NCBI GenBank assembly: GCA_028711505.1
Contig: JAQTSC010000002.1
Location: 11,936-75,935 of the forward strand
Origin: Minisyncoccota bacterium
Lineage (GTDB): Bacteria > Patescibacteriota > Minisyncoccia > JAHISW01 > Tagabacteraceae
Length of the DNA: 64,000 nucleotides
Direction: 5' to 3'
Below the pieces are notes generated by a model that searched no databases, was not told the origin of the DNA, and was given only the letters and a program-made list of their open reading frames with translations. Positions within the stretch are counted from its first letter, which is position 1. Every line of letters starts with the position of its first letter. Both the position numbers and the translations under genes were made by a program. This document shows, piece by piece, positions 6,700-40,611 of this stretch.

Positions 6700-6729
6700 A
6701 TTATTTTTTTATTGAATAATAAAAAGACT

Positions 6730-17450: not shown

Positions 17451-18218
17451 TTATGTCCAAAAAAATGCCAAAAGAGAGCCGAAGACAAGAAACGGGCCGA
17501 AAGGAATTTTGCTCTTAAGCCCGTAGCCTTTTTTAAGCGAAATCAGCAAAAGCCCGATTATTGAGCCTACCCAAAACGCGAACAAAAATCCGAAAAATAC
17601 TTTTTCAAATCCCAAAAACCAGCCAAGACCTAAGGCGAGCTTGGCATCGCCAAAACCCATCCACTTTCCTTTTGACAAAAACCAAAGGACGGCAAAAAAA
17701 CCGCCAAAAAGAAATCCCGCTGACAAATCCAGAAGAAAATCGTAGAGGCTGAAACTTGAAAAATAAATCATGTAATTAAAAGCGAGCGCGTTGAAAAACC
17801 AAACATAACCGTTCGGAATTATAAAATGAAGAAAATCATAAACCGCGATAACGATTAGGATTGAAACAATAAGCCAAAGAAAAAACACGATCCCAAGCAA
17901 ATGGAAATTGGAAAATTGATTGAAAATTAAAAATTTAAAATTAAAAATCAGCAGGAACAACAGCCCCGTTATTGTTTCTAATATCGGATACTGCCAGGAA
18001 ATTTTGCTTTTGCACCCCCTGCATTTCCCTTTTTGCGCCAAAAAACTGAAAATCGGAAAAAGCTCCTTCCACTTTAATTTTTTTCCGCAGGAAAAACATT
18101 TTGAATTTCCCCAAAAAACGCCCTCGCCGGTGCCGCGCCTAAGTATAAGCACATTCAAAAAACTGCCTATGACAGACCCGAAGATAAAAACAATTATGCC
18201 AAGAACAACATTATTCAT
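17451..18218 (-). CDS. pilD: type IV prepilin leader peptidase (A24 family)
   Basis: N-terminal CxxC...CxxC zinc motif, conserved Asp-containing motifs (AVYDF; GFGDAKL), polytopic membrane protein. Confidence 0.85.
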   Translation of the reverse strand: MNNVVLGIIVFIFGSVIGSFLNVLILRRGTGEGVFWGNSKCFSCGKKLKWKELFPIFSFLAQKGKCRGCKSKISWQYPILETITGLLFLLIFNFKFLIFNQFSNFHLLGIVFFLWLIVSILIVIAVYDFLHFIIPNGYVWFFNALAFNYMIYFSSFSLYDFLLDLSAGFLFGGFFAVLWFLSKGKWMGFGDAKLALGLGWFLGFEKVFFGFLFAFWVGSIIGLLLISLKKGYGLKSKIPFGPFLVFGSLLAFFWT

Positions 18219-18326
18219 ATTCTAATTTTACCATATCTTTTTTATTTCTAAACACGGCGGCATAAACAGAAACCCAGCTCCTTATAAGGGGGCTGGGTTG
18301 CCTGTTTCAATGCAATCTGAAAGGAA

Positions 18327-18836
18327 TTACGGAGTTACGTCGTAGCAAGCATCAGTTCCTGCACCATCAGTCGCATCGCAGTCAGCGTCGTTTCCGTCAA
18401 AACCGAAGTCAGCTGAAGGAGACTTATCTGCATCATTATCAAGAGCAGCATTAGAAGTATCTTCTAGGACCGCTCCAAGATGGTAATAAAGACAGTTGCC
18501 CGCATCAGCCACGGCGCACGCGCCTCCAGCGCTGCTATCCAAATTATCATAAGCATAGCCTGCGAGAGAGCTAGGGTCAGTCGGAACTACAGCTATATAC
18601 GTAGGAGCAAGAGTAGACAATGCATCCGGATAACCAGTTTCAGTGGCGCACGCTGCGTCATAACAAAGCTCAAGCGCCAATTGAATTTGTTTTAAGTCCG
18701 CAATTCTTCTAGCATCTCTTGATTTCTGCCTCGCGCTGTTCAATGACGCCAAAACTACTGACGCCAAAATACCAATGATGGCGATAACCACGAGGAGTTC
18801 AATTAAAGTAAAGCCCTTATTTCTTTTGCTAAACAT
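18327..18836 (-). CDS. pilA: type IV major pilin (PilA-like)
   Basis: Canonical prepilin N-terminus 'KGFTLIELLVVIAIIGILASVVLASL' (G|FTLIE). C-terminal Cys pairs. Confidence 0.85.
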   Translation of the reverse strand: MFSKRNKGFTLIELLVVIAIIGILASVVLASLNSARQKSRDARRIADLKQIQLALELCYDAACATETGYPDALSTLAPTYIAVVPTDPSSLAGYAYDNLDSSAGGACAVADAGNCLYYHLGAVLEDTSNAALDNDADKSPSADFGFDGNDADCDATDGAGTDACYDVTP

Positions 18837-18962
18837 TTTTTAATTCGGTATTAAGTTAATCGACCTTTTGGTTAATTGCTTAATTACAAATTCATTATAA
18901 CGTTTCTGACTTTATTTTTCACGTTTTGTTGTGGATAAGTTTCTTTGCAAGACAACTCCGCA

Positions 18963-20171
18963 TTATACCGCCATCGCGATGTTGTAAATCGGCACCAAAA
19001 CAGAAGCCAGAAGAAGCCCGACACCGACGCCCAAAACAACGGTCATCGCCGGCTCAATAAGACCTATCATTGTTTCAAGAGCGTCGTCCATTTCTCTTTT
19101 ATAGAAACCCGCCAGCGTTTTAAATATAAAATCCAATTTCCCTGTTTCTTCCCCTATTTTTATCATCTGTCCCATAAGAGGCGAAATTTCATGATACCTG
19201 GAAAAACTTTCGGAAATAGTGGCGCCTCCTTTAACCGATTCTATCGTATCTTTTAAAATCGCCCTGTAAATCGGGCTCTCAACCACATCCGATGTTATTT
19301 CCAAAGACCTTATCATGCTCACGCCTCCGGTAATCAAAGTTTCCAGGTTGTCGGCAATACGGGCAAGATAAAGCTTTTGGTATAAAGTTCCAAGATAAGG
19401 AATAGAAAGCTGGAGAGAAGCGACTTTAAGACGGCCATCGGGTGTTTTTGAATATCTCCATAAAAGGAAAACTCCTACTGCCAAAAAAAGGAAGAAAAAA
19501 GCTCCGTAATTTCTCAAAATATCGCTTGTGTACATTACCGCTTTCGTGTAAAGAGGAGCCTCCTGCCCGCTTTCTTTAATAATATCGGTGAGTTTGGGAA
19601 TAACAACAACCATCATTACCACAATTACACCGATAAAAGCGGCAACAACGAAAGCTGGATAGATAAGCGCTTTTTTCGCTTTGCCTATAAGTTCGGCATT
19701 GCGTTCCAGATAATCAGCCAAATGTTTGAAAATTTCATCCAATTTTCCGGATTCTTCCCCTGTCTTCACCATGCTTACGTAAAAATTAGAGAAAACTTTC
19801 GGATATCGCGAAAGCGCTTCCGCGATCCTTGAGCCGCCGCTTATATCCACGACAATGCCATTTAGAACCTCGCGCATAGCAGGATTTTCAATTTCGGCAG
19901 AGAGAAGTTTAAAAGCGCTCAATACTGAAACTTTCGCCTCAAAAAGAGTCGCTATCTGTCTTGAAAGCATCACTATATCTTTTCTTTTCACTTTTTTAAA
20001 AGAAAAAATATCCTTGTCAAAAAAAGGAATCCTGCTTGATTTTGAAACAAGGGAGATTACTATCAGGCCTCTTCTTTGGAGAGAACTTAAGGCGATTTCC
20101 TGGCTTGACGCTTCCAGTTCGCCTTCTTTAATTTCTCCGTTAGGCGTTGTCGCTTTGTAATAAAAAAGCAT
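18963..20171 (-). CDS. pilC: type IV pilus assembly platform protein PilC (GspF family)
   Basis: Two T2SSF-domain repeats with 3 TM segments. 402 aa. Located between pilA and pilT. Confidence 0.9.
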   Translation of the reverse strand: MLFYYKATTPNGEIKEGELEASSQEIALSSLQRRGLIVISLVSKSSRIPFFDKDIFSFKKVKRKDIVMLSRQIATLFEAKVSVLSAFKLLSAEIENPAMREVLNGIVVDISGGSRIAEALSRYPKVFSNFYVSMVKTGEESGKLDEIFKHLADYLERNAELIGKAKKALIYPAFVVAAFIGVIVVMMVVVIPKLTDIIKESGQEAPLYTKAVMYTSDILRNYGAFFFLFLAVGVFLLWRYSKTPDGRLKVASLQLSIPYLGTLYQKLYLARIADNLETLITGGVSMIRSLEITSDVVESPIYRAILKDTIESVKGGATISESFSRYHEISPLMGQMIKIGEETGKLDFIFKTLAGFYKREMDDALETMIGLIEPAMTVVLGVGVGLLLASVLVPIYNIAMAV

Positions 20172-20177
20172 AGAAAA

Positions 20178-21254
20178 TCAAGAATTTAAATCAACGAGCG
20201 CTTTGGGATTTAAAGAAAAAGCAAGCGCGTTGTCCATGCTTATTTCACCGCTTCTCACAAGATTCAAAAGTGAACTATTCAAGCTTATCATCCCTTCTGA
20301 CGAACTCGTTTCTATAACTATATCTATCTCGTGCGTGCGACCTTCGCGTATCAAATTCCGAATCGCCGTGTTTGCTATAAGAAGTTCGTACGCGGGGATA
20401 AGCCCTCCGGAAATCCTCGGCACAAGCCTTTGGGAAAAAATGCCAAGCAAACTTCCCGCAAGCTGCAGGCGAATCTGGTTTTGCTGGTCCGCCTGGAAAG
20501 AATCTATAATTCTGTCCACGGTCTGGCTTGCGTTGTTGGTGTGAAGCGATGAAAAAACCATATGCCCGGTTTCCGCCGCGGTTACGGCAATTGCGATACT
20601 GTCCGGATCTCTCATCTCGCCTATCATTGCCACGTCCACGTCTTGACGGAACATGGCGCGAAGGGCGCGCGGAAAATCTTCCGCGTCAGTCCCCACTTCG
20701 CGCTGATCTATTGTTGATTTGTCTTGTATGAATAAATATTCTATAGGATCTTCAATCGTCACAATATGCTGATTCATTTCATGATTTATTATATCTATCA
20801 TCGCGGCAAGGGTGGTTGATTTACCGTGCCCGGTAGGACCGACTACAAGGAAAAAACCTTGTTGCTTTAAAGCAAATGTCCTTAAAAGATCCGGCACATT
20901 CAGGTCTTCAAGATTTTTTATTTCGGAAGGAATAAAACGCATCGCCAAACCCATGTAGCCTTTCTGCCTGAAAGCGTTACATCTGAAACGAGCTTTATTC
21001 GCGGCATTATACGCGAAATCCAAATCTCCTTTTGCCAAAAGTTCCGTTTTTTGACTTTCTTTTATCATGGAAAAAACGATTCCTTCTATCAATTCCGGCG
21101 TCATCATCGGCTTCTTTACCAAAGGAACCAGTGTTCCGGAAACCCTCACGGTCGGGTGCCTGCCAACGGAAAGATGCAAATCAGACCCGCCTGATTCAAC
21201 GACGGAAGTAACCAAATCATTAATTTCTTTTAAATAATCGATTGAAGGCATCAA
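20178..21254 (-). CDS. pilT: twitching-motility/retraction ATPase PilT
   Basis: PilT-type secretion ATPase: Walker A 'GPTGHGKSTTLAAMI', Asp box, His box. ~358 aa, lacking the PilB N-terminal domains. Confidence 0.9.
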   Translation of the reverse strand: MMPSIDYLKEINDLVTSVVESGGSDLHLSVGRHPTVRVSGTLVPLVKKPMMTPELIEGIVFSMIKESQKTELLAKGDLDFAYNAANKARFRCNAFRQKGYMGLAMRFIPSEIKNLEDLNVPDLLRTFALKQQGFFLVVGPTGHGKSTTLAAMIDIINHEMNQHIVTIEDPIEYLFIQDKSTIDQREVGTDAEDFPRALRAMFRQDVDVAMIGEMRDPDSIAIAVTAAETGHMVFSSLHTNNASQTVDRIIDSFQADQQNQIRLQLAGSLLGIFSQRLVPRISGGLIPAYELLIANTAIRNLIREGRTHEIDIVIETSSSEGMISLNSSLLNLVRSGEISMDNALAFSLNPKALVDLNS

Positions 21255-21323
21255 AATAATTTAAGAAGATAAAATACCGATTATAAAATTACAATTTTAT
21301 ATTTTTGTTCCAAAATTTCCGTT

Positions 21324-21767
21324 TTAAGCTCTCTTCCTCTCCAATACCGACTTGATTTTTTCGACAACTTCAGTGGGCGTAAAATTCGCTTTTACGATGT
21401 AATCCGAAGCGCCAAGCTTTATTCCTTTGTCTATATCGTCTTTTTGCCCAAGATTGCTTAAAATGATTATCGGAAATTTTCCGATAATACCTTCCGTCTT
21501 AAGCGCTTCTAAAAATTCCAGACCGGTCATTTTCGGCATGACAACATCCAAAAGCATGATATCCGGCCGAAATCCGCCTTTTAATTTATTCAGAGCGTCA
21601 TCCGTGCTTTTTGAAGATTCCACACTAAAGCCGGATGATTTGAACTTTACCGAATACATGTCCAAAAGAAAATCATCGTCGTCTAAAAGGAAAACCGTAA
21701 TTACCTTATCCATTGTTTTTTCGGACTCGGGCGAAAGATCGCTTGCGGTTGTGTTTCCTTGAGACAT
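21324..21767 (-). CDS. response regulator receiver-domain protein (CheY-like, stand-alone)
   Basis: REC domain motifs: acidic pocket 'LLDDDD', phospho-acceptor 'LLDVVMP', and 'LSNLG...K'. Confidence 0.8.
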   Translation of the reverse strand: MSQGNTTASDLSPESEKTMDKVITVFLLDDDDFLLDMYSVKFKSSGFSVESSKSTDDALNKLKGGFRPDIMLLDVVMPKMTGLEFLEALKTEGIIGKFPIIILSNLGQKDDIDKGIKLGASDYIVKANFTPTEVVEKIKSVLERKRA

Positions 21768-21801
21768 AATTTTATTTTTGATTAAGAGTGCCGCCGTATC
21801 A

Positions 21802-23511
21802 TCATATTATTTCCCTCAACTGTTCAAGCCCTATGGTGCCGTCTAAAACCTTTAAAATTCCGTCTTGCCTCATTGTTATCATCCCCTGGCTGAATGCTTC
21901 TTTCATTATAGCCGATTCTCCCGGATTTGTTAAAATTATTTTTTCAAGTTCTGGCGTCATCGACATAACTTCAAAAATTCCGATCCTCCCCCTGGTGCCT
22001 CTTGGACACTGCGCGGAAGGCAAGGCTTGATAAATAGTATCGGGGATTTCGACCTTTTCCCTTACTCCGGCAGGCATTTGCTTTATCTCTTCTTCAAGCA
22101 TAGCCCTTACTGTGCCGGAAACTTTTACTCCTTTTTTTGATTCGGGACAAAGAGTCCCGACAAGACGCTGAGAAATTGCCGAAATCAAAGTTGCCGGAAT
22201 AAGAAACGGGTCAACTCCCATATCTATAAGACGCGGAATAACGCCGGTGGCGGTATTCGTGTGAAGCGTTGAGAAAACAAGGTGACCGGTCAAAGCAGAC
22301 TGCACCGCCAGCCGCGCTGTTTCTTTGTCTCGTATCTCGCCAACCATGATTACATCCGGGTCTTGCCTTAAAATTGACCTTAACCCGCTCGCGAAATCAT
22401 AACCGATCTCCGGCCTTACCTGCGATTGGCTCATTCCTTCCAAATTATATTCAATAGGATCTTCCAAGCTCACAGCGTTGCTTTTTTCCTTATCCAAAAG
22501 ATTGAGCATCGCGTAGAGAGTGGTAGTTTTTCCGGAACCGGTGGGACCGGTTATCAAGATCATTCCATAGGGCTTTTCAAGCCCTTCTTTTACCATTTTT
22601 AAATTTCTTCCCAAAAGACCGACTTCTTCCAATTTTTTGAGCCCCTTAGTGGCGTCCAAAATTCTTATCACTATTTTTTCTCCGTAAAAAGTCGGAAAAG
22701 TGGAAACGCGAAAATCAATCCTTTTACCGCCGACGCCCGCCTCAAAACGACCGTCCTGCGGTTTTCTTTTTTCGTCCAATTTCATGTTAGTAAGAATTTT
22801 TATTCTCGCGACAACCGCCTCGTGCACTTTTTTCGGCAAAGTAAGACTGGTGTACAAAACGCCGTCAACCCTGAACCTGACTTTCAGCCGGTCGTAAAGC
22901 GGTTCTATGTGTATATCCGAAGCTCTTCCTTCTATGGCATGCCTTATGATAACGGCAACCATTTTTGTAATCGGCGCCTCTTCGGTGGAAGTGGCCATTT
23001 CTTCCGCCTGTTTTATGTCTTCCGGCAAAGTCTTCTGCGCGATAACCGATTCCAATTCATCAAGAATTTTTACTGTTTCGCCGCCAAGACTTTGATAGCT
23101 ATTCAGGGCGTTTTTCAAATCAGTCGAAGAAATCAGAAACAGCTTGAACGGCATATTCAATTTCGAAGATAAAAACTGAAGAGCTTCTCGGGCCTCCATA
23201 TCGTCCGGATTTACAATCCCCACTTCCATAACTCCCTCTTCAACGCCAAGCGGCGCGAATTTGTAAAAACGAACGGATTCTTCGGGGATATTTTTTATTA
23301 TTTCAAAAGGTAAAGTCAAAGAACCCTCCACTTTTTTTATCGGCAACCCGAAAACTTCGCTTTTTGCCTTAGTTATTTCATCTGCGGAGATATTTCGCTT
23401 AACAAGAATTTCTTCAAGGTCAGCCCCTGTTTCGTCGGCCTCTTTTTTGCTCTTAAAAAGAAGGTCATTGGAAATAATATTATTTTTTACTAAAACTTCT
23501 CCAAAAGTCAT
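21802..23511 (-). CDS. pilB: type IV pilus assembly (extension) ATPase PilB/GspE
   Basis: N-terminal T2SSE_N-like domain, Walker A 'GPTGSGKTTTLYAML', tetra-Cys motif (CPESKKG...C). Confidence 0.9.
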   Translation of the reverse strand: MTFGEVLVKNNIISNDLLFKSKKEADETGADLEEILVKRNISADEITKAKSEVFGLPIKKVEGSLTLPFEIIKNIPEESVRFYKFAPLGVEEGVMEVGIVNPDDMEAREALQFLSSKLNMPFKLFLISSTDLKNALNSYQSLGGETVKILDELESVIAQKTLPEDIKQAEEMATSTEEAPITKMVAVIIRHAIEGRASDIHIEPLYDRLKVRFRVDGVLYTSLTLPKKVHEAVVARIKILTNMKLDEKRKPQDGRFEAGVGGKRIDFRVSTFPTFYGEKIVIRILDATKGLKKLEEVGLLGRNLKMVKEGLEKPYGMILITGPTGSGKTTTLYAMLNLLDKEKSNAVSLEDPIEYNLEGMSQSQVRPEIGYDFASGLRSILRQDPDVIMVGEIRDKETARLAVQSALTGHLVFSTLHTNTATGVIPRLIDMGVDPFLIPATLISAISQRLVGTLCPESKKGVKVSGTVRAMLEEEIKQMPAGVREKVEIPDTIYQALPSAQCPRGTRGRIGIFEVMSMTPELEKIILTNPGESAIMKEAFSQGMITMRQDGILKVLDGTIGLEQLREII

Positions 23512-23571
23512 AAAATAAAAAATTCAAAATTACTGTCTTGCAGTTTGTAATAGGCGAATCGCGGAAATTTA

Positions 23572-23913
23572 TTATATCCCATTCGCGGGAGCGAAAGGAT
23601 TTTCTCTTCCTATTTTGTCAGGGTAAGGAATGACAGGCGTAAGATCTTTAAGCGCTTTAAAATCAGACCGGCCAAAAAATCCAGTATCAATCTCTATGTT
23701 TCTTATGCGCGTTACTATCTCGACAAAATCCTTGCCTACTATACTTTCGTCAGCAAGAATGGCCGGAGAACCAAGATTTATTGAATCGATTGAAGGCAAA
23801 GCCACGGAGCCCGAAGAACTGCCGCCTTTGAAAAAATTCGCATAAATATAGTAGCTAGCCACAGCCAAAATCGCCAAAGACAGAATAAAAATTAAATTGC
23901 GTTTATTAAACAT
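23572..23913 (-). CDS. hypothetical pilus-assembly-associated protein (PilP-like position)
   Basis: 113 aa with a single N-terminal TM. Position between pilB and pilO-like genes. Confidence 0.3.
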   Translation of the reverse strand: MFNKRNLIFILSLAILAVASYYIYANFFKGGSSSGSVALPSIDSINLGSPAILADESIVGKDFVEIVTRIRNIEIDTGFFGRSDFKALKDLTPVIPYPDKIGRENPFAPANGI

Positions 23914-23924
23914 TTTATCGGTTT

Positions 23925-24479
23925 TTATTTTTTGAAATAAGCGTTGGCGGTCATGGAAAATTTATGCACGTTGGTTTCGCCACTCTCGGAAGAAAATTCT
24001 ATTCCCGTAATATCCATGAAACGCAGACTGCGCTGTATCTCGTCAAAAAAAGATTTAGCCGCCGGATAAGAAGCCGAAAAAAACATATTTACCTGTAGCA
24101 CAGAGCGGCTTTCGCCGCCATTTTCTCCGGGCAAATTGCTAGCGGCCTGAGGTTTTGATTCGGCCTGGGTCTGAAGCTGTTCTATAATCACTCCCGACGC
24201 CGACGCGATATTTGAAAGTTCCACCATAAGTCTTAAGCTATCGGCGTTTTCAGGCACCATCTTGGAAAGACGCTCCAAATTTTTCGGGTCTATGGAATTA
24301 TATTTATCCAAAAGTTCATCTCTTATTTTTTTTGTTTCGCGCGATTCGCTAAGCGCCGAATCAAGCGCAGCCTTGTGCGTTTTTAAAGTTTTTATTTGGT
24401 CTAATGCCGGTTTCGTCCAAGAAAGGAAGACTCCGACGGCGGCCAACAGCATTATTATTATTGTAATTCCTCTGCCCAT
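23925..24479 (-). CDS. PilO-like pilus assembly protein
   Basis: Single N-terminal TM followed by a coiled-coil and a periplasmic domain. Gene order pilM-N-O. Confidence 0.45.
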   Translation of the reverse strand: MGRGITIIIMLLAAVGVFLSWTKPALDQIKTLKTHKAALDSALSESRETKKIRDELLDKYNSIDPKNLERLSKMVPENADSLRLMVELSNIASASGVIIEQLQTQAESKPQAASNLPGENGGESRSVLQVNMFFSASYPAAKSFFDEIQRSLRFMDITGIEFSSESGETNVHKFSMTANAYFKK

Positions 24480-24501
24480 GTGTTTAAGATTTAGATCATT
24501 A

Positions 24502-25119
24502 TCATTTATTTATCTCTTCGCTTATTACCAAACTCAAGGAAAAAGACACTTCACCTTTTTCCGTCAAATTAAAATTTGAAAAAGAAAAATCTTCTATGTT
24601 TTTATTTTTATTGAAAACATCCGATTGCTGAGCCAAAGCCTCATAATTTTTAGCCTTCCCCGAAAGCTGCACTTTTATGCTATTTTGCTCTCCTTCGCTT
24701 GAAACGACTTTTGTTTTTCCTTTTTCATTTCCTACCGCTTTGCCGTAAGAATAAGAAAAGTTTGAAAAATACACATCCTTGACCGTCGTCTCTTCAACCA
24801 GCTTAAAAACCCTCGTCGGATAAAGATGATTCCCCAAAAGAGCGCCTGCGTCGGGTATTGAAAAAGAAAGATTCTCCATCTGCGCTATAAGAGACAATTC
24901 AAACGCAGCCTTTGCCCTTTCCAAAGAAGCGGAAAGATCGGTTATCTGCTGGCTTATCATTCGCTTATATAAAAGAGATCCGCCGAAAGCCAAAAGAGAA
25001 ATAGTCAAAAGAAAAACCGAGATTTTCATTAAAAAACCGGAGCTAACCTTGCGGTAATAATCTTTCCCCGTTGAAAAGGAACTTTTTGGCATGAAAGATA
25101 TTTTTCCGGAAGTTTCCAT
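24502..25119 (-). CDS. PilN-like pilus assembly protein
   Basis: Short cytoplasmic N-terminus, single TM, coiled-coil. Immediately downstream of pilM. Confidence 0.45.
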   Translation of the reverse strand: METSGKISFMPKSSFSTGKDYYRKVSSGFLMKISVFLLTISLLAFGGSLLYKRMISQQITDLSASLERAKAAFELSLIAQMENLSFSIPDAGALLGNHLYPTRVFKLVEETTVKDVYFSNFSYSYGKAVGNEKGKTKVVSSEGEQNSIKVQLSGKAKNYEALAQQSDVFNKNKNIEDFSFSNFNLTEKGEVSFSLSLVISEEINK

Positions 25120-25127
25120 AAAAATTT

Positions 25128-26264
25128 TTACAAATCCCTCATCGCGAGACCTGTTGCCACCGCGAACACAGGGCTAATTTGTTTTATGCTTTCCTGAAGG
25201 AAAAGCGGGTATTCTGTTTTTGAAAAAGGGTCGGCAAGCGAAACTTCAACTCCCAAGTTTTTCACCGCCATATCGGTTATTCCCTTTAGAAGCGCGCCGC
25301 CGCCGATTAAAACAATTTTACTCACTGAATTCCCGTATTTTCTTCCGTAAGCAAGCGACATCTGTTTTGATTCGGCAAAAATAAAACTTAAAACAGTTTC
25401 CATTACATTCACGAATTCGCGATACTCCGGCCTCGGCGAAAGACCTATCTCCTGTTTCATCTCCTCCGCCCTTTCAAAACTTATTTTTAATGAATTGGCG
25501 ATGGCGGTTGTTATCGCCTGTCCTCCTTTGTCGACGGCATGTGTCATTCGCAACGCTCCCTTATCTATAACGCTTATCTTTGTAGACGAAGCGCCCAAAT
25601 CAATCAGCATAAACGGAGCTGTCTGTCTGAATATGGAAGAACGCCACTCGCTAAAAACTTCTATCTCAAACGCTTTAACTTTCATTCCGGCTTTTGAAAT
25701 TATATGCTGATATTTCATAATCACTTCCCTTTGAATCGCCGCAAGAAGCACTTCAACCATCTGTTTTTTTTCTGTTTTTCCTCCGGAAGAAAGAAGTTGT
25801 TGTTCTTCCTCTCCTGTTTCATCCGAACCCGCGTCAAGAACCCACCAATCAAGGTCAACTTCGTTCAAGGGGACCGGAATATATTTTCTGGCTTCAAAAC
25901 CTATCATCTCATTCATATTCTTTCCTCCTTCCACCAAAGGAATTTTTATCGTAGTCAAAAAACTGCTTTTCACCGGAATAGAAACAATCGCGTCTTTAGC
26001 GCCCGCTCCCGATTCTTTGGCCAAATCCATTATCATGGAAACCGCCGCTTCCTCTGAAAGTTGAGCGTTCTGCCCTATTGGACGATTCGCGTACGGCCCG
26101 GTGGCAAGTTCTCCGTATGTTTCAAGGATCGCTTTTTCTTTTTCTTTTTTTAGCTGAACTATTTTCACCGATGAACTGCCGATATCAATACCAATAACTC
26201 TTTGGTCTTTCTGCCAAAATTTTAAATCAGGGGAAAGTGTCTTACCGAATAATGTAAAAGCCAT
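25128..26264 (-). CDS. pilM: type IV pilus assembly ATPase-fold protein PilM (actin-like)
   Basis: Actin/FtsA-like fold: 'GIDIGSSSVKIV' phosphate-1 motif, 'LIDLGASSTK', 'LIGGGALLKGI'. Confidence 0.8.
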   Translation of the reverse strand: MAFTLFGKTLSPDLKFWQKDQRVIGIDIGSSSVKIVQLKKEKEKAILETYGELATGPYANRPIGQNAQLSEEAAVSMIMDLAKESGAGAKDAIVSIPVKSSFLTTIKIPLVEGGKNMNEMIGFEARKYIPVPLNEVDLDWWVLDAGSDETGEEEQQLLSSGGKTEKKQMVEVLLAAIQREVIMKYQHIISKAGMKVKAFEIEVFSEWRSSIFRQTAPFMLIDLGASSTKISVIDKGALRMTHAVDKGGQAITTAIANSLKISFERAEEMKQEIGLSPRPEYREFVNVMETVLSFIFAESKQMSLAYGRKYGNSVSKIVLIGGGALLKGITDMAVKNLGVEVSLADPFSKTEYPLFLQESIKQISPVFAVATGLAMRDL

Positions 26265-26964: not shown

Positions 26965-26989
26965 AAAATGTGTTAGCGTAAAAAAACAT

Positions 26990-27076
26990 GGAGGCGTGGC
27001 TGAGCGGCCGAAAGCAGCACACTGCTAATGTGTTGAGGGGGAAACTCCTCCGCAGGTTCGAATCCTGCCGCCTCCG
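26990..27076 (+). tRNA. tRNA-Ser (GCT)
   Basis: GGAGGCG acceptor, anticodon loop CTGCTAA, long variable arm, T loop TTCGAAT. 87 nt. Confidence 0.85.
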
Positions 27077-27116
27077 TACTTCGACAGGCTCAAATCAGGA
27101 ATCTGAATTATTTGTA

Positions 27117-27731
27117 ATGATTAAAAAAAGACAAAAAGATGTCTGGAATAAGGTTTATAGCAAATATACTCCCGCTGAATTACCGTGGTTCAATCTAAAA
27201 TTTCCGAAAGAAGTAACAAAATGGATTTCCGCGCTGGATAAAAATACTACGATGATAATTCCCGGCTGCGGTTTCGGAGACACGGCTGGCGTTCTTTCCA
27301 AAATGGGTTTTAGAAAAATAATGGGTACGGATATTTCTAAAAAAGCGACAGCCGGAGCAAGAAAGAGATTTCCAAAATTGAAATTTAAAACAGTTGAAAC
27401 CGAAAAACTGAATCAAGAAAGATACGCCAACGCAAATATTTTTGATTGGCTTAATTTTCATCATATCAACAGAAAAAATATTCGTGCTTACTTATTTTCA
27501 TTACAAAAAATATGTAATACTTTGATTCTTGCTTATATTTTTGAACCAGAATTAGGCAAAAAAAGAAATTCTTACATAACAGGTGAAAAAGTCTATAATC
27601 ATAACCCGGCGGATGTTATAAAAATACTGGATAAACTTACTCAAAAGAAAAAACTCACGTTTGAATTTAAGATAAATCCAAAATTTGGGAATAAAAAGCA
27701 TAAAGCCGTAGCTTTTATGTTCATAAAATAG
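27117..27731 (+). CDS. class I SAM-dependent methyltransferase-like protein (TPMT-like)
   Basis: Motif I-like 'IPGCGFGDTAG'. The listed ORF start at 26988 overlaps tRNA-Ser, so the start is taken as the internal ATG at 27117. Confidence 0.5.
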   Translation: MIKKRQKDVWNKVYSKYTPAELPWFNLKFPKEVTKWISALDKNTTMIIPGCGFGDTAGVLSKMGFRKIMGTDISKKATAGARKRFPKLKFKTVETEKLNQERYANANIFDWLNFHHINRKNIRAYLFSLQKICNTLILAYIFEPELGKKRNSYITGEKVYNHNPADVIKILDKLTQKKKLTFEFKINPKFGNKKHKAVAFMFIK

Positions 27732-29322: not shown

Positions 29323-29398
29323 ATTTTTGGAAAGATAGTTAAAACAAAAACAACCTCTGCTCAGAGGTTGTTTTTGTTTTAACGTTTTTCGAAACAAA

Positions 29399-29809
29399 TC
29401 ACCAATTCAATTCAAGCGCGCGGTCAGCGTTGCCATACCGGCCTGTGGAAATTATAGATCCTTCACCGTCATATTCCGCGCTGCAAGTCGCGCCATTATC
29501 AAGACTGCAGGAAATAGTGGCCGTCAGCCCGTCGTCGCACCCGATGGTTGTTTCCTGGTTTACCTGATAAAAACATTCTTCGGCGCCGGCATCGGCCGCG
29601 TAAAAAGCCACGACAGACTGTCCTGATTGTATCGTCATTTTTATCTGCTGGAACATCAAAACAGACACGCCAAGCCCGATACTCAAAAGCATGCTTAACA
29701 TAAGAAGAGAAAGAAGAATAGAAATAGCTCCTTCTTCTCCGCCTTTCCTGTTTAATTTAAAATTCAATGCCAACCTCCGAAAAAAAGTTTTTTTAACCAT
29801 ATCTGTCAT
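29399..29809 (-). CDS. minor pilin-like protein (hydrophobic N-terminal helix, Cys-rich C-terminus)
   Basis: Basic N-terminus then a hydrophobic helix 'ISILLSLLMLSMLLSIGLGVSVLMF'. Last gene of the minor-pilin operon. Confidence 0.45.
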   Translation of the reverse strand: MTDMVKKTFFRRLALNFKLNRKGGEEGAISILLSLLMLSMLLSIGLGVSVLMFQQIKMTIQSGQSVVAFYAADAGAEECFYQVNQETTIGCDDGLTATISCSLDNGATCSAEYDGEGSIISTGRYGNADRALELNW

Positions 29810-29813
29810 GTTT

Positions 29814-30332
29814 TTATCTTAAAGCCACGGAACTTTGAAGATTAATAACATCCGATCCGCCGCTGCTTCTAACACCGGGTTCAAGTTTAAGAATTATAGT
29901 GACAAACGTCCTGTCTGGAGACGTATAGTCTCTTACATAAAAAGCTCCCGAGACTTTCACTGCGCCTTCCGGGGTCACATCAAAAACAGGGACAGTAGAC
30001 GGCGGTTTATAAAAATAAAGCCCGACATCTCCAAATTTATAGACCAAATTTTCTCCGGCTGAATTCGTAATGTCCAAAGTAGACCCGTCTTCCGAAACAG
30101 AGTTTACGACGCTTGTCCTCAATTCCCTTGTTAAAAATTCCAGAGTATAACGTCCGGTTTCATAAAGGTTTTGGACTAAAAATACTTTGCGCTGAGTTTT
30201 GACCACGGAAATTGAAACAGCCGTGATACTCAAAACAAAAGCGCTGAAAATCGCCAAAGAAACGAGGGTTTCTATAATCGTAAATCCCGCCAAAAATTCA
30301 ATATCCTTCTTTTTTAATGTTTTAAGCTTCAT
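29814..30332 (-). CDS. type IV pilin-like minor pilin
   Basis: Prepilin motif 'LAGFTIIETLVSLAIFSAFVL' (G|FTIIE). Confidence 0.65.
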   Translation of the reverse strand: MKLKTLKKKDIEFLAGFTIIETLVSLAIFSAFVLSITAVSISVVKTQRKVFLVQNLYETGRYTLEFLTRELRTSVVNSVSEDGSTLDITNSAGENLVYKFGDVGLYFYKPPSTVPVFDVTPEGAVKVSGAFYVRDYTSPDRTFVTIILKLEPGVRSSGGSDVINLQSSVALR

Positions 30333-30350
30333 GCTTCAGTTTTAAAATTT

Positions 30351-30875
30351 TTATCTCCATCTCCACAAGCGGTCTTCCACGTTTAAAGTGTGCCACCCTG
30401 TCCGAGCCTGCCATCTTATTTCTGAGACAACCTTTATTTCATCGTTGCTTACCCGGGATAAAATTACCCTTCTGTAAAAAGGCGTGTCCTCTCCCTCCTC
30501 GTATTGATAAAGTCCGAAAGAATTTATTTTCAATGGCGCTTCCGGGTCCGCGCAAGAAGCGTCAATTAGCAAAATACTGTCATGAACAGGGCAATAAATT
30601 TGAGAGCTTCCTATCGGATGCGAATAAGGAGTGGTAGTACTGTACCATTCCCAGCTTCTCCAATCGCCGTTTGATTTTCTTATATCCCTTATTATTTCAA
30701 CCCCCTCCTGCGCCAATCCTGAAGCGATAAGCCGCGACTTGCTGTTTTCAACGGCTTTTAGCGAATAATTAGTCATGTTGAAAACTCCGAATATTCCGAC
30801 AATGGCGATGGACGTCGCCACAATAACTCCAACAAAACTCAATCCTTGATTTTTCGGATGACCGGAATTATTCAT
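30351..30875 (-). CDS. minor pilin-like protein (PilV/PilW-like position)
   Basis: N-terminal hydrophobic helix 'LSFVGVIVATSIAIVGIFGVF'. Within the pilin operon. Confidence 0.45.
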   Translation of the reverse strand: MNNSGHPKNQGLSFVGVIVATSIAIVGIFGVFNMTNYSLKAVENSKSRLIASGLAQEGVEIIRDIRKSNGDWRSWEWYSTTTPYSHPIGSSQIYCPVHDSILLIDASCADPEAPLKINSFGLYQYEEGEDTPFYRRVILSRVSNDEIKVVSEIRWQARTGWHTLNVEDRLWRWR

Positions 30876-30885
30876 AAATTTTATT

Positions 30886-31464
30886 TTATTCCGCCAGAGG
30901 AGTAAGAATATCGACTCCTCCTCCGCTCTTTGCCAATACTATATTATAAGTTATATCCGAACCGCTTCCCGCCCACAGTGTTATGGAGAAACTGGAACCA
31001 AAGGGGTCTTCCGAATTGCCGTCAAAAAAAGTAGTCGGACGCGGCGGCTTAAAAAAAATATCAAAAGAAGAGGGCGGGTACTGATAAGAAATCCCCGAAG
31101 GCAAATAAACAGTTTCTAAAATATAATCCCCCGCGTCATATATGTTATTGCTGGTCGCGCATTCGGGAGACACGTCGGCATAAACAGAATAATAATCTCC
31201 CGACGAAGGAAAGATTATTCCGTATCCGCAATATTGTTCTTTTACGTCAATCCCGCTTATGGCCAAATTTTGAGCCCTTCTTATATCCGAAGCCAAACGC
31301 TGCGCAGCTTGGCTTAAATTGTATTTTTTTTCTCCTTCTTTATAATTAGCCGCGATGATTGCCGTTATTATAGTTATGACAGAAACCACGACCATAAGCT
31401 CAATAAGAGTAAACCCGATCCTCAGAAATCCGGCTTTTTTGTTTTTTGGCAACAGACTCATCAT
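30886..31464 (-). CDS. type IV pilin-like minor pilin
   Basis: Prepilin motif 'KKAGFLRIGFTLIELMVVVSVITIITAIIAA' (G|FTLIE). Confidence 0.7.
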   Translation of the reverse strand: MMSLLPKNKKAGFLRIGFTLIELMVVVSVITIITAIIAANYKEGEKKYNLSQAAQRLASDIRRAQNLAISGIDVKEQYCGYGIIFPSSGDYYSVYADVSPECATSNNIYDAGDYILETVYLPSGISYQYPPSSFDIFFKPPRPTTFFDGNSEDPFGSSFSITLWAGSGSDITYNIVLAKSGGGVDILTPLAE

Positions 31465-31495
31465 TGATTTAATTATACATCATCATAACAAAGTG

Positions 31496-31534
31496 CAAAA
31501 AACATTCCGGCCGCCGATAAGCGCAGCCGGAATG
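31496..31534 (-). terminator. intrinsic terminator after large adhesin-like gene copy B (minus strand)
   Basis: Hairpin CATTCCGGCtgcgcttatcggcgGCCGGAATG followed by TTTTTTG on the minus strand. Part of the duplicated unit. Confidence 0.5.
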
Positions 31535-32155
31535 AAAGAATATCAAGCGTCGGTTGAATTGATTTAAAAAGGAAGTATTTCTTTCCAATTAGGAAGCGGC
31601 CATTTTACTTCCACTGTGCTTAAAAGCGTGCATGATTTTCCGTTTGAATCGGTGATTCTTAAGGAGACTTGTTTTGAGCCTTGGCTTAAAAATGTTGTCA
31701 TCGGGCTTTGTTCTACCGAAGTTCCGGGGGAACCGTCTTGGAATTCCCATACGCGTTCAGTGGTGGAAGCTCCTTCGGTGACCGTTGAACTGTCCGTGAA
31801 TTGAACGACATCGTCTTCGTTGGGCTTGAAAGGAAGCCATGTGTAGACAACGGTCGGGTATTCGACGTAATCCGTGGTAAAAGGAGTTCCGACAATCCAA
31901 TCAGAATGGCCGTTATCGTCATTGTAGACTTTGACGCGCCAATTATACGTTTCTCCGTAGACGAGTTTGTCTGATTCGGGGACATCAATGACGAGAACCT
32001 GCTGTGTATTTATCGTGGGGCTTGGATATGAAAGTCCCGATTGGTTTCTGTCCACTTCAGGCGATAGAAAATCGCTGTTGTTGTCTACCTGCATTTGGAA
32101 TCTTGATTCCGCTTTTTCAAGAGGGTCGGAATACGTCCACGAGAAGGTATGGCGG
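31499..32155. repeat. near-identical direct repeat, copy B (3' end of adhesin gene plus terminator; period 2040 bp)
   Basis: Six-frame ORFs 31616..31804 / 33656..33844 and 31713..31988 / 33753..34028 translate identically. Boundaries approximate. Confidence 0.8.
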
Positions 32156-33522
32156 GCTATATTGCAATATGTGTCAGGACCCGGTTCTGATACAGAGAGG
32201 TCAGTAGCTTCCGGATCTCCGCTTGGAGGCACAAAAGAAGTATTAACCTGATATCCCGAGCCGTTGAAATTCACCCATCCGACGACATCTCCTCCCCATG
32301 CCCAGCCTGACCAATTTCCCGAAGTGTCCATAGTGGCGCCGTAGGCGCCGGGATTCTCTCCTTCATCATATGCCGCAGCCGACGGAGTAAAATTTGAAGT
32401 CCAGCGGGCGATGTCTTTGGAAATTCTAAGTTCGTCAATATAACCATTCACTCCCATATCTCCATTCCAATGCGCTCCGACTCTTAAATCATAATTGCCC
32501 GCGTTTATATTAGTTATAGAAGCATCGGTATAATCAGCGCCCAGCTGAACGCCGTTTACATACATGCGAATCTTTGTTCCGTTTCTCACAAGCGCCAAAT
32601 GATACCAAGTGTGAAGCTGCGCGCTGGTCCAATCTCTCGACATTAAAATTACACTTCCGCTTTTATCGTAAGTGAAGTATAGCGTTCCGTCAGCGTGCCT
32701 CCATAAATTCCAGCCATCCGTGTCTGCCGTTCCCCTGCCTCCTCTTCCGACAAAATTTTGATGAGTATTTATTGAATTTAGATACACCCAAAAATCAACG
32801 GTAAAGTCTCCGCTAAAATCCCAATCGGAACTGTTGGGAGTAGAAAGATAATCTCCGCTGCCGTCAAAAGCGGCGCTGTATCCTCCGAATTTGCTCTGGC
32901 TGGAACTTCTCGCGACATTTCCGTTTGGCGTCATCACATGGGTGAAGGCCGAACTATTCGTCAACCCCATATCATCCATATGCAAAAGCAATTTCGCATA
33001 GCTGTCATTACCTCCAATGCCTCCGCCTCCTGCGGAAGGGTCTCTTAAACTAATCCATCCGTCCCAGCCTCCGCCGTAAGAAAGAGCTCTCGCCCAGCCT
33101 TCTATGGAAAGATTCTCATCTCCTATATCGGCCGGAGAATCAACTCTGGCATCGCAAACGCCCGATGGACAGCCTGAGAGATCAGCCGCGTTAAAAGTTA
33201 TCCATCCGATATTTTCGGACCAGGCAAAACCGGAAAAAATACCAGTGTCCAAATTAAGATTCACTCCGTAGCTGGAGGTTCCGCCTCCGGTCAAATTGTT
33301 AAAACTTATCCATCCGATATTTTCGGACCAGGCGAAACCGGTGGTATTTTGCGCGCTTCCGGCTTCTGCAGGCTCCCAATTCCGCAAAAACATCACGGCG
33401 GAAAAAATAAAAACAACGGAGATTAAAACATTTATTAAAAAACCTAATTTTTCGGATGCCGATTTTTTTATTATGGAAAGATTCATTGTCTTTATTTTAC
33501 GCCAGAAAACGATCAACGGCAA
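31564..33522 (-). CDS. large secreted/anchored adhesin-like protein with repeated 'AWSENIGWISFN' motifs, LamG/ConA-like lectin domain insertion, and C-terminal PKD-like domain (copy B)
   Basis: N-terminal signal-anchor. Tandem 'GFAWSENIGWI(S/T)FN' repeats. Central ~230 aa with a LamG-like pattern (DFTVDFWV...WYHLALVRNG...MYVNGV...GYIDELRI). C-terminal 'WEFQDGSPGT...' PKD-like beta-sandwich. Confidence 0.55.
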   Translation of the reverse strand: MPLIVFWRKIKTMNLSIIKKSASEKLGFLINVLISVVFIFSAVMFLRNWEPAEAGSAQNTTGFAWSENIGWISFNNLTGGGTSSYGVNLNLDTGIFSGFAWSENIGWITFNAADLSGCPSGVCDARVDSPADIGDENLSIEGWARALSYGGGWDGWISLRDPSAGGGGIGGNDSYAKLLLHMDDMGLTNSSAFTHVMTPNGNVARSSSQSKFGGYSAAFDGSGDYLSTPNSSDWDFSGDFTVDFWVYLNSINTHQNFVGRGGRGTADTDGWNLWRHADGTLYFTYDKSGSVILMSRDWTSAQLHTWYHLALVRNGTKIRMYVNGVQLGADYTDASITNINAGNYDLRVGAHWNGDMGVNGYIDELRISKDIARWTSNFTPSAAAYDEGENPGAYGATMDTSGNWSGWAWGGDVVGWVNFNGSGYQVNTSFVPPSGDPEATDLSVSEPGPDTYCNIARHTFSWTYSDPLEKAESRFQMQVDNNSDFLSPEVDRNQSGLSYPSPTINTQQVLVIDVPESDKLVYGETYNWRVKVYNDDNGHSDWIVGTPFTTDYVEYPTVVYTWLPFKPNEDDVVQFTDSSTVTEGASTTERVWEFQDGSPGTSVEQSPMTTFLSQGSKQVSLRITDSNGKSCTLLSTVEVKWPLPNWKEILPF

Positions 33523-33535
33523 ACCTGTTGTGGAT

Positions 33536-33574
33536 AATAAAACATTCCGACCGCCGATAAGCGCAGCCGGAATG
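33536..33574 (-). terminator. intrinsic terminator after adhesin-like gene copy A (duplicate of 31496..31534 with one stem mismatch)
   Basis: CATTCCGaCC...GGCCGGAATG hairpin plus a T-rich tract on the minus strand. Confidence 0.4.
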
Positions 33575-34195
33575 AAAGAATATCAAGCGTCGGTTGAATT
33601 GATTTAAAAAGGAAGTATTTCTTTCCAATTAGGAAGCGGCCATTTTACTTCCACTGTGCTTAAAAGCGTGCATGATTTTCCGTTTGAATCGGTGATTCTT
33701 AAGGAGACTTGTTTTGAGCCTTGGCTTAAAAATGTTGTCATCGGGCTTTGTTCTACCGAAGTTCCGGGGGAACCGTCTTGGAATTCCCATACGCGTTCAG
33801 TGGTGGAAGCTCCTTCGGTGACCGTTGAACTGTCCGTGAATTGAACGACATCGTCTTCGTTGGGCTTGAAAGGAAGCCATGTGTAGACAACGGTCGGGTA
33901 TTCGACGTAATCCGTGGTAAAAGGAGTTCCGACAATCCAATCAGAATGGCCGTTATCGTCATTGTAGACTTTGACGCGCCAATTATACGTTTCTCCGTAG
34001 ACGAGTTTGTCTGATTCGGGGACATCAATGACGAGAACCTGCTGTGTATTTATCGTGGGGCTTGGATATGAAAGTCCCGATTGGTTTCTGTCCACTTCAG
34101 GCGATAGAAAATCGCTGTTGTTGTCTACCTGCATTTGGAATCTTGATTCCGCTTTTTCAAGAGGGTCGGAATACGTCCACGAGAAGGTATGGCGG
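33539..34195. repeat. near-identical direct repeat, copy A
   Basis: See copy B. The 5' ends of the two genes (about 33060-33540 vs 34420-34900) are also similar but more diverged. Confidence 0.8.
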
Positions 34196-34878
34196 GCGGT
34201 ATTGCAGTACGTATCGGAGCTTGGCGAGGAAACCGTAAGATCGATAGCTTTCGGATTGATATCCACCGGCACAAAAGAAGTATTAACCTGATATCCCGAG
34301 CCGTTGAAATTCACCCACCCGACGACATCTCCTCCCCATGCCCAGCCTGACCAATTTCCCGAAGTGTCCATAGTGGTGCCGTAGGCCTCTCCGCTATCTT
34401 TCAAACTAATCCATCCGTCCCAGCCTCCGCCGTAAGAAAGAGCTTTCGCCCAGCCTTCTATGGCAACTGTTTCCTTTCCTATTTTATTTGGCAAAGCGAC
34501 TCTGGCATCGCAAACGCCCGATGGACAGCCTGCGAGATCAGCCGCGTTAAAACTTATCCATCCGATATTTTCGGACCAGGCAAAACCGGAAAAAATACCG
34601 GTGTCCAAATTAAGATTCACTCCGTAATCGGAAGTGCCGCCTCCGGTCAAATTATTAAAACTTATCCATCCGATATTTTCGGACCAAGCGAAACCGGTGG
34701 TATTTTGCATATTTCCAGCGTTTACGGATTTCGAATTTAGAAGAAACATCGCTCCCGAAAAAATAATCGCAACGGAGATTAAAACATTTATTGAAAAACT
34801 AAATTTTTCGGATGCCGATTTTTTTATTATGGAAAGATTCATTGTCTTTATTTTACGCCAGAAAACGGTCAACGGCAA
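33604..34878 (-). CDS. adhesin-like paralog lacking the LamG-like insertion (copy A)
   Basis: The first ~150 aa and the C-terminal ~230 aa are near-identical to 31564..33522. The lectin-like middle region is absent. Confidence 0.55.
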   Translation of the reverse strand: MPLTVFWRKIKTMNLSIIKKSASEKFSFSINVLISVAIIFSGAMFLLNSKSVNAGNMQNTTGFAWSENIGWISFNNLTGGGTSDYGVNLNLDTGIFSGFAWSENIGWISFNAADLAGCPSGVCDARVALPNKIGKETVAIEGWAKALSYGGGWDGWISLKDSGEAYGTTMDTSGNWSGWAWGGDVVGWVNFNGSGYQVNTSFVPVDINPKAIDLTVSSPSSDTYCNTARHTFSWTYSDPLEKAESRFQMQVDNNSDFLSPEVDRNQSGLSYPSPTINTQQVLVIDVPESDKLVYGETYNWRVKVYNDDNGHSDWIVGTPFTTDYVEYPTVVYTWLPFKPNEDDVVQFTDSSTVTEGASTTERVWEFQDGSPGTSVEQSPMTTFLSQGSKQVSLRITDSNGKSCTLLSTVEVKWPLPNWKEILPF

Positions 34879-34950
34879 ACCTGTTGTGGATAATAAAAAT
34901 ACCAGTTTTTATTATTGTTTCCCGGGAAGAATCGCTATAATATTAAATAC

Positions 34951-40520: not shown

Positions 40521-40593
40521 TAATATTTTTGGATGTGCCAGGACTCGAACCTGGAACCATCGAGGTATAAGCTCGAAGCTCTGCCAATTGAGC
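40521..40593 (-). tRNA. tRNA-Ile with UAU anticodon (by manual fold)
   Basis: Reverse complement folds as GGATGTG-TA-GCTC-AATTGGCA-GAGC-T-TCGAG-CTTATAC-CTCGA-TGGTT-CCAGG-TTCGAGT-CCTGG-CACATCC-A. Confidence 0.7.
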
Positions 40594-40611
40594 TACACAT
40601 CCCCCCTTATT

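Follow-up and report, generated by a model that had tools for sequence, protein, structure and literature searches.

Tandem paralogs with a Trp-rich barrel domain, one carrying an inserted LamG module, encoded next to minor pilin genes in a Minisyncoccota bacterium

Introduction

PilY1/PilC (Neisseria_PilC, PF05567), the tip adhesin of diderm type IVa pili, is a non-pilin effector that has been reported to be absent from monoderms, where a lectin-bearing tip protein of the type IV pilus (T4P) is established in the form of S. sanguinis PilC (PMC9934059). In Saccharibacteria (TM7x), PilX1 (a β-jelly-roll) and PilX2 (a β-propeller) are putative lectin-like tip proteins that have been proposed to act as host-binding adhesins (PMC11623550, PMC12206443). 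Here we describe two adjacent genes of a Minisyncoccota bacterium, in a window of 64,000 nucleotides (the whole stretch analyzed, from contig JAQTSC010000002.1 of assembly GCA_028711505.1), whose products share one domain order, differ by a LamG-type insertion, and probably serve in attachment in association with the pilus.

A large part of bacterial diversity belongs to Patescibacteria, whose cultivated representatives live attached to other cells. Their recognition of hosts is largely obscure, and only the pili of Saccharibacteria have been studied experimentally so far (PMC11623550). From gene context we give about an even chance to the reading that each of the two proteins is a non-pilin, PilY1/PilC-like effector seated on a tip complex of minor pilins. 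By this we mean that it would work like PilY1, not that it is a PilY1, because neither the PilY1 propeller nor the class III signal peptide of pilins was found. Compared with known lectin-bearing T4P tip proteins, what is new is that the carrier is not a pilin, that its fold is undescribed, and that the lectin is inserted rather than appended. The two genes are as follows.

33604 to 34842, minus strand: short paralog, 412 aa from an ATG (the open reading frame (ORF) reaches a TTG at 34878, 424 aa); order signal peptide, Trp-rich barrel, FN3-like domain, PKD domain, LPxWKEILPF tail
31564 to 33486, minus strand: long paralog, 640 aa from an ATG (the ORF reaches a TTG at 33522, 652 aa); the same order plus the LamG insert

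An earlier inspection of the window, here called the sequence-only reading, had described adjacent minus-strand ORFs of 652 and 424 aa that encode giant surface proteins. Both ORFs are present and open with TTG, and the lengths stand for ORFs so defined; the real start, however, is the ATG 12 codons further on, at 33486 and 34842, as judged by alignment with 55 homologues and by the NCBI records, in which both proteins (640 and 412 aa) are titled 'PKD domain-containing protein'. Proteins of this length are mid-sized rather than giant.

Comparison with described pilus tip proteins

Like PilY1/PilC, the window proteins are non-pilins with a Sec-type signal peptide, are encoded beside four core minor pilins (of the FimU/GspH, PilV/GspI, PilW/GspJ, and PilX/GspK types), an arrangement that the window shares with 20 related loci, and are modular proteins in which one part is variable and possibly lectin-like, with a proposed seat on the minor-pilin tip complex. 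Unlike PilY1/PilC, they lack the C-terminal β-propeller (no Pfam match to PF05567 at E ≤ 1), their predicted folds being barrel, FN3, and PKD. They are also much smaller, at 412–640 aa, whereas PilY1 measures ∼1000–1200 aa, and the family gene precedes the pilins, whereas the PilY1 gene comes after pilX. A further difference lies in the host, a monoderm-type lineage; because PilY1 is reported absent from monoderms, a non-pilin candidate in Patescibacteria is noteworthy (PMC9934059).

The S. sanguinis proteins PilC (ConA-like lectin plus Ig-like domain) and PilB (vWA domain) resemble the window proteins in that ConA/LamG-superfamily and Ig-like modules are carried on a monoderm T4P protein for which a tip complex has been proposed (PMC9934059, PMC8179133). 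Being true pilins, however, they have a class III signal peptide and an α1 helix, neither of which is found in the window proteins, and the lectin of PilC is appended, whereas that of the long paralog interrupts a loop that belongs to another domain. PilX1 and PilX2 of Saccharibacteria are, like the window proteins, large accessory proteins of a Patescibacteria T4P locus that have carbohydrate-binding-like domains and no PilD-type signal peptide. In contrast to the window proteins, they are described as combining a lollipop pilin-like N terminus with C-terminal domains, their folds differ from those of the window proteins, and they come from another class of Patescibacteria; no sequence relationship between the two was detected.

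Gene order around the family gene

As the sequence-only reading had stated, both genes read toward four pilin-like genes (29399–31464). These are four consecutive pilin-type genes with profile matches (N_methyl, GspH, PilV, and GspJ/ComGF) and thus form a core minor pilin set, followed 3 kb downstream by the pilus machinery.

30886 to 31464, minus strand: minor pilin 1, GspH/FimU-like, prepilin site G↓FTLIE (N_methyl, 22.1 bits versus 21.2; GspH TIGR01708, E = 1e-10)
30351 to 30875, minus strand: minor pilin 2, PilV/GspI-like, without Glu5 (PilV TIGR02523, E = 6e-5)
29814 to 30332, minus strand: minor pilin 3, PilW/GspJ/ComGF-like, prepilin site G↓FTIIE (ComGF/GspJ, E = 3.5e-6 and 7e-4)
29399 to 29809, minus strand: minor pilin 4, PilX/GspK-like, motif AFYAADAGAE; no Pfam match for the window copy
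17451 to 26264, minus strand: T4P machinery (pilM, likely pilN, pilO, pilB, response regulator, pilT, pilC, major pilin at 18327–18836, pilD), 3 kb downstream of the minor pilins

The subtype names of the pilins are approximate, because the equivalog scores all lie under the curated cut-offs. For the fourth gene, PilX_N matched 6 of 12 orthologues (best E = 1.4e-5), and a sequence search of the PDB returned nothing useful. The response regulator between pilB and pilT (21324–21767) is a stand-alone one; it occupies the same place in one other locus (L085) and stands ahead of pilB in several more.

When one genome from each species was scanned with a pattern, more than 553 relatives were found, all in metagenome-assembled genomes of Patescibacteria type and mostly in Paceibacteria/Parcubacteria groups, and 80 loci were kept. 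Neighborhoods were called by profile searches with the window pilins and T4P proteins; the simple ORF caller used places some starts too far upstream (giving, for example, 'family' ORFs of 800–1100 aa), and such lengths were left unused. The pilin set directly follows the family gene, at a distance of −25 to 424 nt, in 20 loci from ∼18 distinct genomes, and in 8 of the 20 the gap is at most 33 nt or the genes overlap, which implies operons. The pilus link that had been proposed from the window gains from this synteny: on a distance tree, the H-V-W-X pilins directly follow every member of the clade to which the window belongs, a second clade is likewise uniform, and the order with the four minor pilins is kept down to 30% protein identity. 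In several genomes the family gene stands between pilD and the minor pilins, the order being pilT-pilC-pilins-pilD-...-FAMILY-H-V-W-X (L005, L011, L046, L056, L119), and in L108 and L110 it abuts pilM, lying directly upstream of it. In other clades it is upstream of RNase Y, with pilB ∼4 kb beyond. Counted over all contexts, T4P genes lie within ∼7 kb in 24 of the 50 genome loci of at least 10 kb; the figure is 18 of 80 for metagenome loci, and 11 of the 24 metagenome loci of at least 8 kb (within ∼7 kb). We estimate that a random gene in such ∼1-Mb genomes would be near T4P genes in <10% of cases. One contig (L096, 5839–8055 and 11534–12622) holds three family genes. Two of them form a tandem pair, the first copy of which has two FN3-like domains and no barrel; the third stands directly upstream of pilH-V-W.

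In Ca. Minisyncoccus archaeophilus (Paceibacterales), PMX.108_01191, a protein with a signal peptide and Ig-like and PKD domains, ranks in the top five secreted proteins by expression when the organism grows on methanogens (PMC10936435); by its domain description, rather than by sequence, it may belong to the family.

In many of the related loci, a separate set of genes stands just upstream of the family gene, often between it and pilD. Their products share an N terminus in which a basic start and ∼20 hydrophobic residues are followed by the 'AWTEP'-type pattern AW(T/Q)EP(S/T)xxPPxxNxxxP(L/I)NxG (L011 4848–6248; L046 5267–6355; L056 4551–5474; L032 5595–6767; L048 2710–3882; L053 3233–3958; L018 4080–6395; L038 4754–6937; L067 5585–6990). 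They have no Pfam match except DUF2341 in one, and no such gene occurs in the window. In L046, a membrane protein of ∼198 aa encoded between the 'AWTEP' and family genes (6400–6996) is a type I signal peptidase (Peptidase_S26, E = 3e-16), and the position of its gene suggests a signal peptidase I dedicated to these secreted proteins; the positional equivalent in L011 (6281–6853) had no match.

Domain architecture

The predicted parts of the two proteins map as follows.

34717 to 34842, minus strand: Sec-type signal peptide, short paralog, predicted signal peptidase I site VNA↓G
33361 to 33486, minus strand: Sec-type signal peptide, long paralog, predicted site AEA↓G
34258 to 34713, minus strand: Trp-rich four-repeat domain, short paralog (residues 44–195), predicted small up-and-down β-barrel
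33041 to 33354, minus strand: N-terminal part of the barrel (repeats 1–3), long paralog, 5′ of the insert
32227 to 32346, minus strand: C-terminal part of the barrel (repeat 4), long paralog, 3′ of the insert
33943 to 34251, minus strand: FN3/Ig-like domain, short paralog (long-paralog counterpart 31903–32211)
33643 to 33885, minus strand: PKD domain, short paralog (long-paralog counterpart 31603–31845)
33607 to 33642, minus strand: conserved extreme C-terminal tail WPLPNWKEILPF, short paralog (long-paralog counterpart 31567–31602)

The N terminus had been taken for a signal anchor. A signal peptide cleaved by signal peptidase I is more likely, because a hydrophobic segment followed by (V/A)-x-A↓G is the signature of that enzyme; at the predicted site, 52 of 56 homologues have Ala at −1 and 55 of the 56 have V, A, T, I, or S at −3, with G, A, or D at +1. 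Neither paralog matched the prepilin profiles N_methyl or TIGR02532, and neither has a class III signal peptide.

The domain that follows consists of four ∼40-aa repeats with the pattern G-[FWY]-A-W-S-x-N-I-G-W-I-S-F. Pfam matched the LamG and PKD domains that the sequence-only reading had called, and neither Pfam nor NCBIfam has a model for its SENIGW repeat region: residues ∼44–195, with their GFAWSENIGWISFN motifs, are uncovered at E ≤ 1. Cell-wall-binding repeats (choline-binding/CW_binding, GW, and SH3b) were considered and rejected, having given no profile match in Pfam or NCBIfam at E ≤ 1. AlphaFold2, run on the short protein with a 56-sequence alignment, returned a model with an overall predicted local distance difference test score (pLDDT) of 88, in which an N-terminal helix (residues 11–35) precedes a β-rich barrel segment (48–190), an FN3-like sandwich (198–300), and a PKD sandwich (320–400). 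The barrel domain modeled alone reached a pLDDT of 89.8 and a predicted template modeling score of 0.85. As modeled, the Trp-rich domain is a four-repeat barrel of undescribed fold without a close solved relative. Nearest to it in fold are the ligand-binding barrels of surface lipoproteins (hemophilin, TbpB, HpuA). Compared with eight-stranded barrels of this kind (hemophilin, the TbpB/HpuA C-lobe, fHbp) and with OmpA-like barrels, however, identity is 5–15%, the TM-score is <0.5, and no Foldseek match reaches E ≤ 0.001, and the window barrel differs in being built from four clear sequence repeats; the likeness of the model to hemophilin, TbpB, and OmpA-like proteins is one of topology and is not evidence of homology.

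The FN3-like region matched Ig_Rha78A_N (PF25788) at or just under the cut-off (27.1 bits versus 27.4 in the short paralog). The PKD-like module reported for both copies is borne out by PKD_4 (PF18911), with 35.0 and 36.6 bits in the two copies against a cut-off of 27, and by the β-sandwich fold of the model. Both proteins end in a tail with the family consensus LPxWKE(I/V)xP(W/F), in which, among the 56 homologues, Leu-403 is kept in 46, Pro-404 in 55, Trp-406 in 51, and Glu-408 in all 56; 42 of the 56 have the same terminal residue and no hydrophobic tail. Scaffold and tail together contain 30 invariant columns in the family alignment. For the tail we suggest a docking role.

A sortase or C-terminal sorting signal was ruled out for the LPxWKExxP motif, which sits at the very end of the protein with the hydrophobic segment absent in 42 of 56 members. 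Three homologues (P0052, P0111, and P0024) run 9–24 residues past the motif with a hydrophobic segment, and most members stop at it. In the paralogs themselves we found no recognizable anchor, that is, no LPXTG with a transmembrane tail, no lipobox, and no cell-wall-binding Pfam match.

The LamG insert and its loop

The feature that distinguishes the long paralog is the following.

32347 to 33040, minus strand: insert of 684 nt present only in the long paralog (Gly-rich linker, LamG/ConA-like module, second linker)

The LamG-type insertion had been recognized from motif strings, all of which are present, and is confirmed by Laminin_G_3 (PF13385), which matches the long copy only (E = 2.1e-21, 77.1 bits versus a cut-off of 27.6, residues 220–369 of the 652-aa ORF, spanning ∼32416–32865). 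The insert lies between 'WDGWISLRD' and 'YGATMDTSGNWSGWAWGG', in the loop that joins strands 2 and 3 of barrel repeat 3, and its linkers are Gly-rich and acidic. In GC content (0.467) it matches the remainder of the gene, without anomaly; no second copy of LamG or of the barrel that could have served as donor is present within the window, and a sequence search of the PDB gave no useful relative of the insert.

The closest cassettes occur on pilins. In L085 (7001–10372), two LamG-bearing true type IV pilins (P0008, 699 aa, and a neighbor of 418 aa) follow right after pilD in a T4P cluster ordered as in the window (pilO-pilB-response regulator-pilT-pilC-pilins-pilD). P0008 has the pilin sequence KGVTLIELAIV and two LamG units, 50% and 44% identical to the insert, whose limits (NDSY...TSAY) match those of the insert (NDSY...AAAY), so that the insert is one repeat unit. 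These proteins thus resemble the long paralog in cassette, unit limits, and cluster order, and they differ from it in being canonical pilins to which LamG units are added one behind the other, with barrel, FN3, and PKD all missing. In the window, unlike in L085, pilD is directly followed by ligA.

No other family member with LamG inside the barrel was found among the 120 best database matches or in the 82 genome and 80 metagenome loci. A 693-aa metagenomic member (L134/L135, 5992–8073), however, has Fib_succ_major (PF09603) in the loop that holds LamG in the window, with a full-length match (1–187 of 187) of 30 bits against a cut-off of 33.9, and with pilB ∼4 kb downstream of the gene; in other homologues, the corresponding loops of repeats 1 and 3 contain shorter insertions. 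Because LamG, Fib_succ_major, and the shorter insertions fall in the same or equivalent loops, the repeat-3 loop is, by sequence comparison, a recurrent insertion site for putative carbohydrate-binding domains. Together with the LamG cassette on a true pilin, this lends support to the swappable binding module that the sequence-only reading had suggested. Long homologues with multiple LamG units were rejected as examples of the same architecture: they match the insert only and have no barrel, FN3, or PKD. Such LamG-only proteins dominated the first homology search, and the poor alignment that included them was left unused.

Proposed role and alternatives

In the reading that we favor, each product would be exported by Sec, and signal peptidase I would then cut it at (V/A)-x-A↓G, leaving a mature protein composed of Trp-rich β-barrel, FN3-like domain, PKD domain, and LPxWKExxP tail, without a pilin helix. 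This effector would ride a tip complex formed from the core minor pilins of the four neighboring genes and would expose surfaces for binding a host or substrate. The loop between strands 2 and 3 of barrel repeat 3 would serve as a plug-in site for lectin-type heads, and the long paralog would be a version armed with LamG and peculiar to this lineage, next to the unarmed short copy. With paralogs of both kinds, the cell could make two versions of the scaffold, with the lectin-type head present or absent. The sequence and model data show the structure of the genes, their duplication, the identity of the domains, the predicted fold, the conserved order of genes, and the alternative inserts; from these we infer export and cleavage, seating on the pilus tip, and glycan binding.

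Several points weigh against this reading. Pilus association is a reading of gene context, the paralogs have no PilY1 domain, and the folding of the long-paralog barrel around its 228-aa insert is an assumption. No T4P gene lies within 7 kb in 47 of 82 genome loci, and the background set for a random gene is an estimate rather than a measurement. In the window itself, putative transcription signals stand between the pair and the pilins.

31503 to 31534, minus strand: terminator-like hairpin 3′ of the long paralog, 12-bp stem with 8 GC pairs, then UUUUUUG
33543 to 33574, minus strand: duplicate terminator-like hairpin 3′ of the short paralog, then UUUUAUUAU
31472 to 31499, minus strand: promoter-like site TTTGCA-16-TATAAT, 10/12 matches, directly 5′ of the first minor pilin

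The hairpins at the ends of the paralogs score z ∼ −2.6 versus shuffles. Because a hairpin and a promoter-like site intervene before the pilins, the case for co-transcription, a possibility raised by the sequence-only reading, is weakened to the point of doubt, and in this genome the pair and the pilins are probably separate transcription units.

The breadth of the barrel weighs in the same direction. A phmmer search with the barrel (152 aa) found 6324 cluster representatives (50%-identity clusters) at E ≤ 1e-3 and 3087 at E ≤ 1e-10, in proteins of 158–3269 aa. The barrel is mostly N-terminal and at times repeated, and its partners include FN3, PKD, LVIVD, CARDB, TSP3, long PKD arrays, and once a C-terminal LamG; in ten other barrel-carrying proteins no Pfam model covered it. 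A barrel so widely shared may be a module of surface proteins in general and not a means of docking on the pilus.

The alternative that fares best, with this breadth as its chief support, is that the proteins are free-standing secreted or surface adhesins or glycan binders that act alongside the pilus without being part of it, the barrel serving for surface retention or ligand binding. We consider this possible but doubtful. The many unrelated extracellular partners of the barrel, the genome loci that have no T4P gene nearby, the terminator and separate promoter ahead of the pilins, and the ligand-binding lipoprotein barrels as nearest folds all fit it. It accounts poorly, however, for a minor-pilin gene order that is universal in the clade of the window and persists at 30% identity, for the family gene placed between pilD and the minor pilins, for the 8 overlapping or near-contiguous loci, and for proteins in which no anchor can be recognized.

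We regard it as improbable that the proteins, instead of being adhesins, help to assemble or prime the monoderm T4P machine (as a factor that initiates assembly or spans the envelope, for example), with LamG as a secondary embellishment. Location with HIJK-type priming pilins, in several genomes beside pilD or pilM, would suit such a role, as would the strong conservation of scaffold and tail with its 30 invariant columns and invariant Glu-408, and PilY1 too primes assembly (cited in PMC11623550). The LamG and Fib_succ_major inserts and the hypervariable loops, on the other hand, fit outward-facing binding; the family is duplicated and diversified within genomes, both in the window and in the contig with three copies; and many T4P clusters of related genomes appear to have no linked copy.

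The tandem duplication

The effector reading treats the pair as a real duplication, of which the following are the key features.

31499 to 32125, minus strand: 627 nt, 100% identical to 33539–34165 (C-terminal coding sequence plus 65-nt 3′ flank)
33539 to 33542, no strand assigned: duplication junction with TTTT microhomology, at which the 65-nt 3′ flank of one gene meets the 56-nt 5′ flank of the next copy

The N- and C-terminal regions, which had been called near-identical, are 82% identical across the N-terminal 161 aa and 94% identical across the C-terminal 267 aa by BLASTP, and the final ∼208 aa, encoded within the 627-nt identical stretch, do not differ at all. At the nucleotide level, 31499–32346 is 96% identical to 33539–34386, and 33041–33542 is 88% identical to 34397–34898. 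The differences are patchy (33 in 32126–32245, 18 in 33086–33145, and 34 in 33266–33445), consist mostly of transitions, and favor third codon positions (46 of 93) without a bias toward adenine. On the distance tree the two paralogs are each other's closest relatives.

We regard the tandem duplication, which is lineage-specific, as real, because a junction-spanning sequence with only 4 nt shared cannot come from collapsed alleles of a single-copy gene. We take the 627-nt identity to reflect either a recent duplication or recent conversion of the 3′ part; the third-position enrichment without adenine bias points to ordinary divergence followed by 3′ gene conversion and not to retroelement-driven diversification. 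Hypermutation by a diversity-generating retroelement was accordingly rejected for the divergent patches, in which transitions of all kinds occur and adenine-specific mismatches were not found. We infer that recombination across the identical repeat could delete one of the copies. That the pair is instead an assembly artefact, two strain alleles with and without LamG joined head to tail, is very hard to believe: the contig is metagenome-assembled, a perfect repeat of 627 nt is difficult for short-read assemblers, and a metagenome scan found no close strain for comparison (none above 46% identity), but the junction of 3′ to 5′ flank shares so little that spanning sequence must exist in the reads, the divergent patches are of the ordinary, third-position-biased kind, and tandem family paralogs with domain differences recur in the independent contig L096.

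Other features of the window

29338 to 29383, no strand assigned: perfect 20-bp-stem hairpin, bidirectional-terminator-like, between the last pilin and the convergent gene for an RRM protein

Two further observations concern tRNA genes. ARAGORN identified a tRNA-Ile with anticodon TAT, uncommon in bacteria, at 40530–40602. The ORF at 26988–27731 begins inside a tRNA-Ser (26989–27077); it encodes a methyltransferase, the start of which is probably further downstream, as Pfam matches begin after residue ∼45.

Discussion

The locus points to a widespread, unannotated family within the pilus clusters of Paceibacteria, with a defined loop that accepts different lectin-type domains. Tentatively, and with some doubt that all of it will hold, we put forward the wider proposal that this family is the missing non-pilin tip effector of Patescibacteria, that the repeat-3 loop is a natural socket for recombined lectin heads (LamG in the window, Fib_succ_major elsewhere), and that tandem copies, one with a head and one lacking it, set or switch the range of hosts or substrates of these episymbionts. 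If the proteins do ride the pilus tip, they would be concrete candidates for determinants of host specificity, they would represent a second, independent solution to the job that PilY1 does in diderms, and they would offer a natural scaffold for domain insertion. If they are not pilus riders, the barrel would still define a new extracellular domain family that deserves a Pfam entry.

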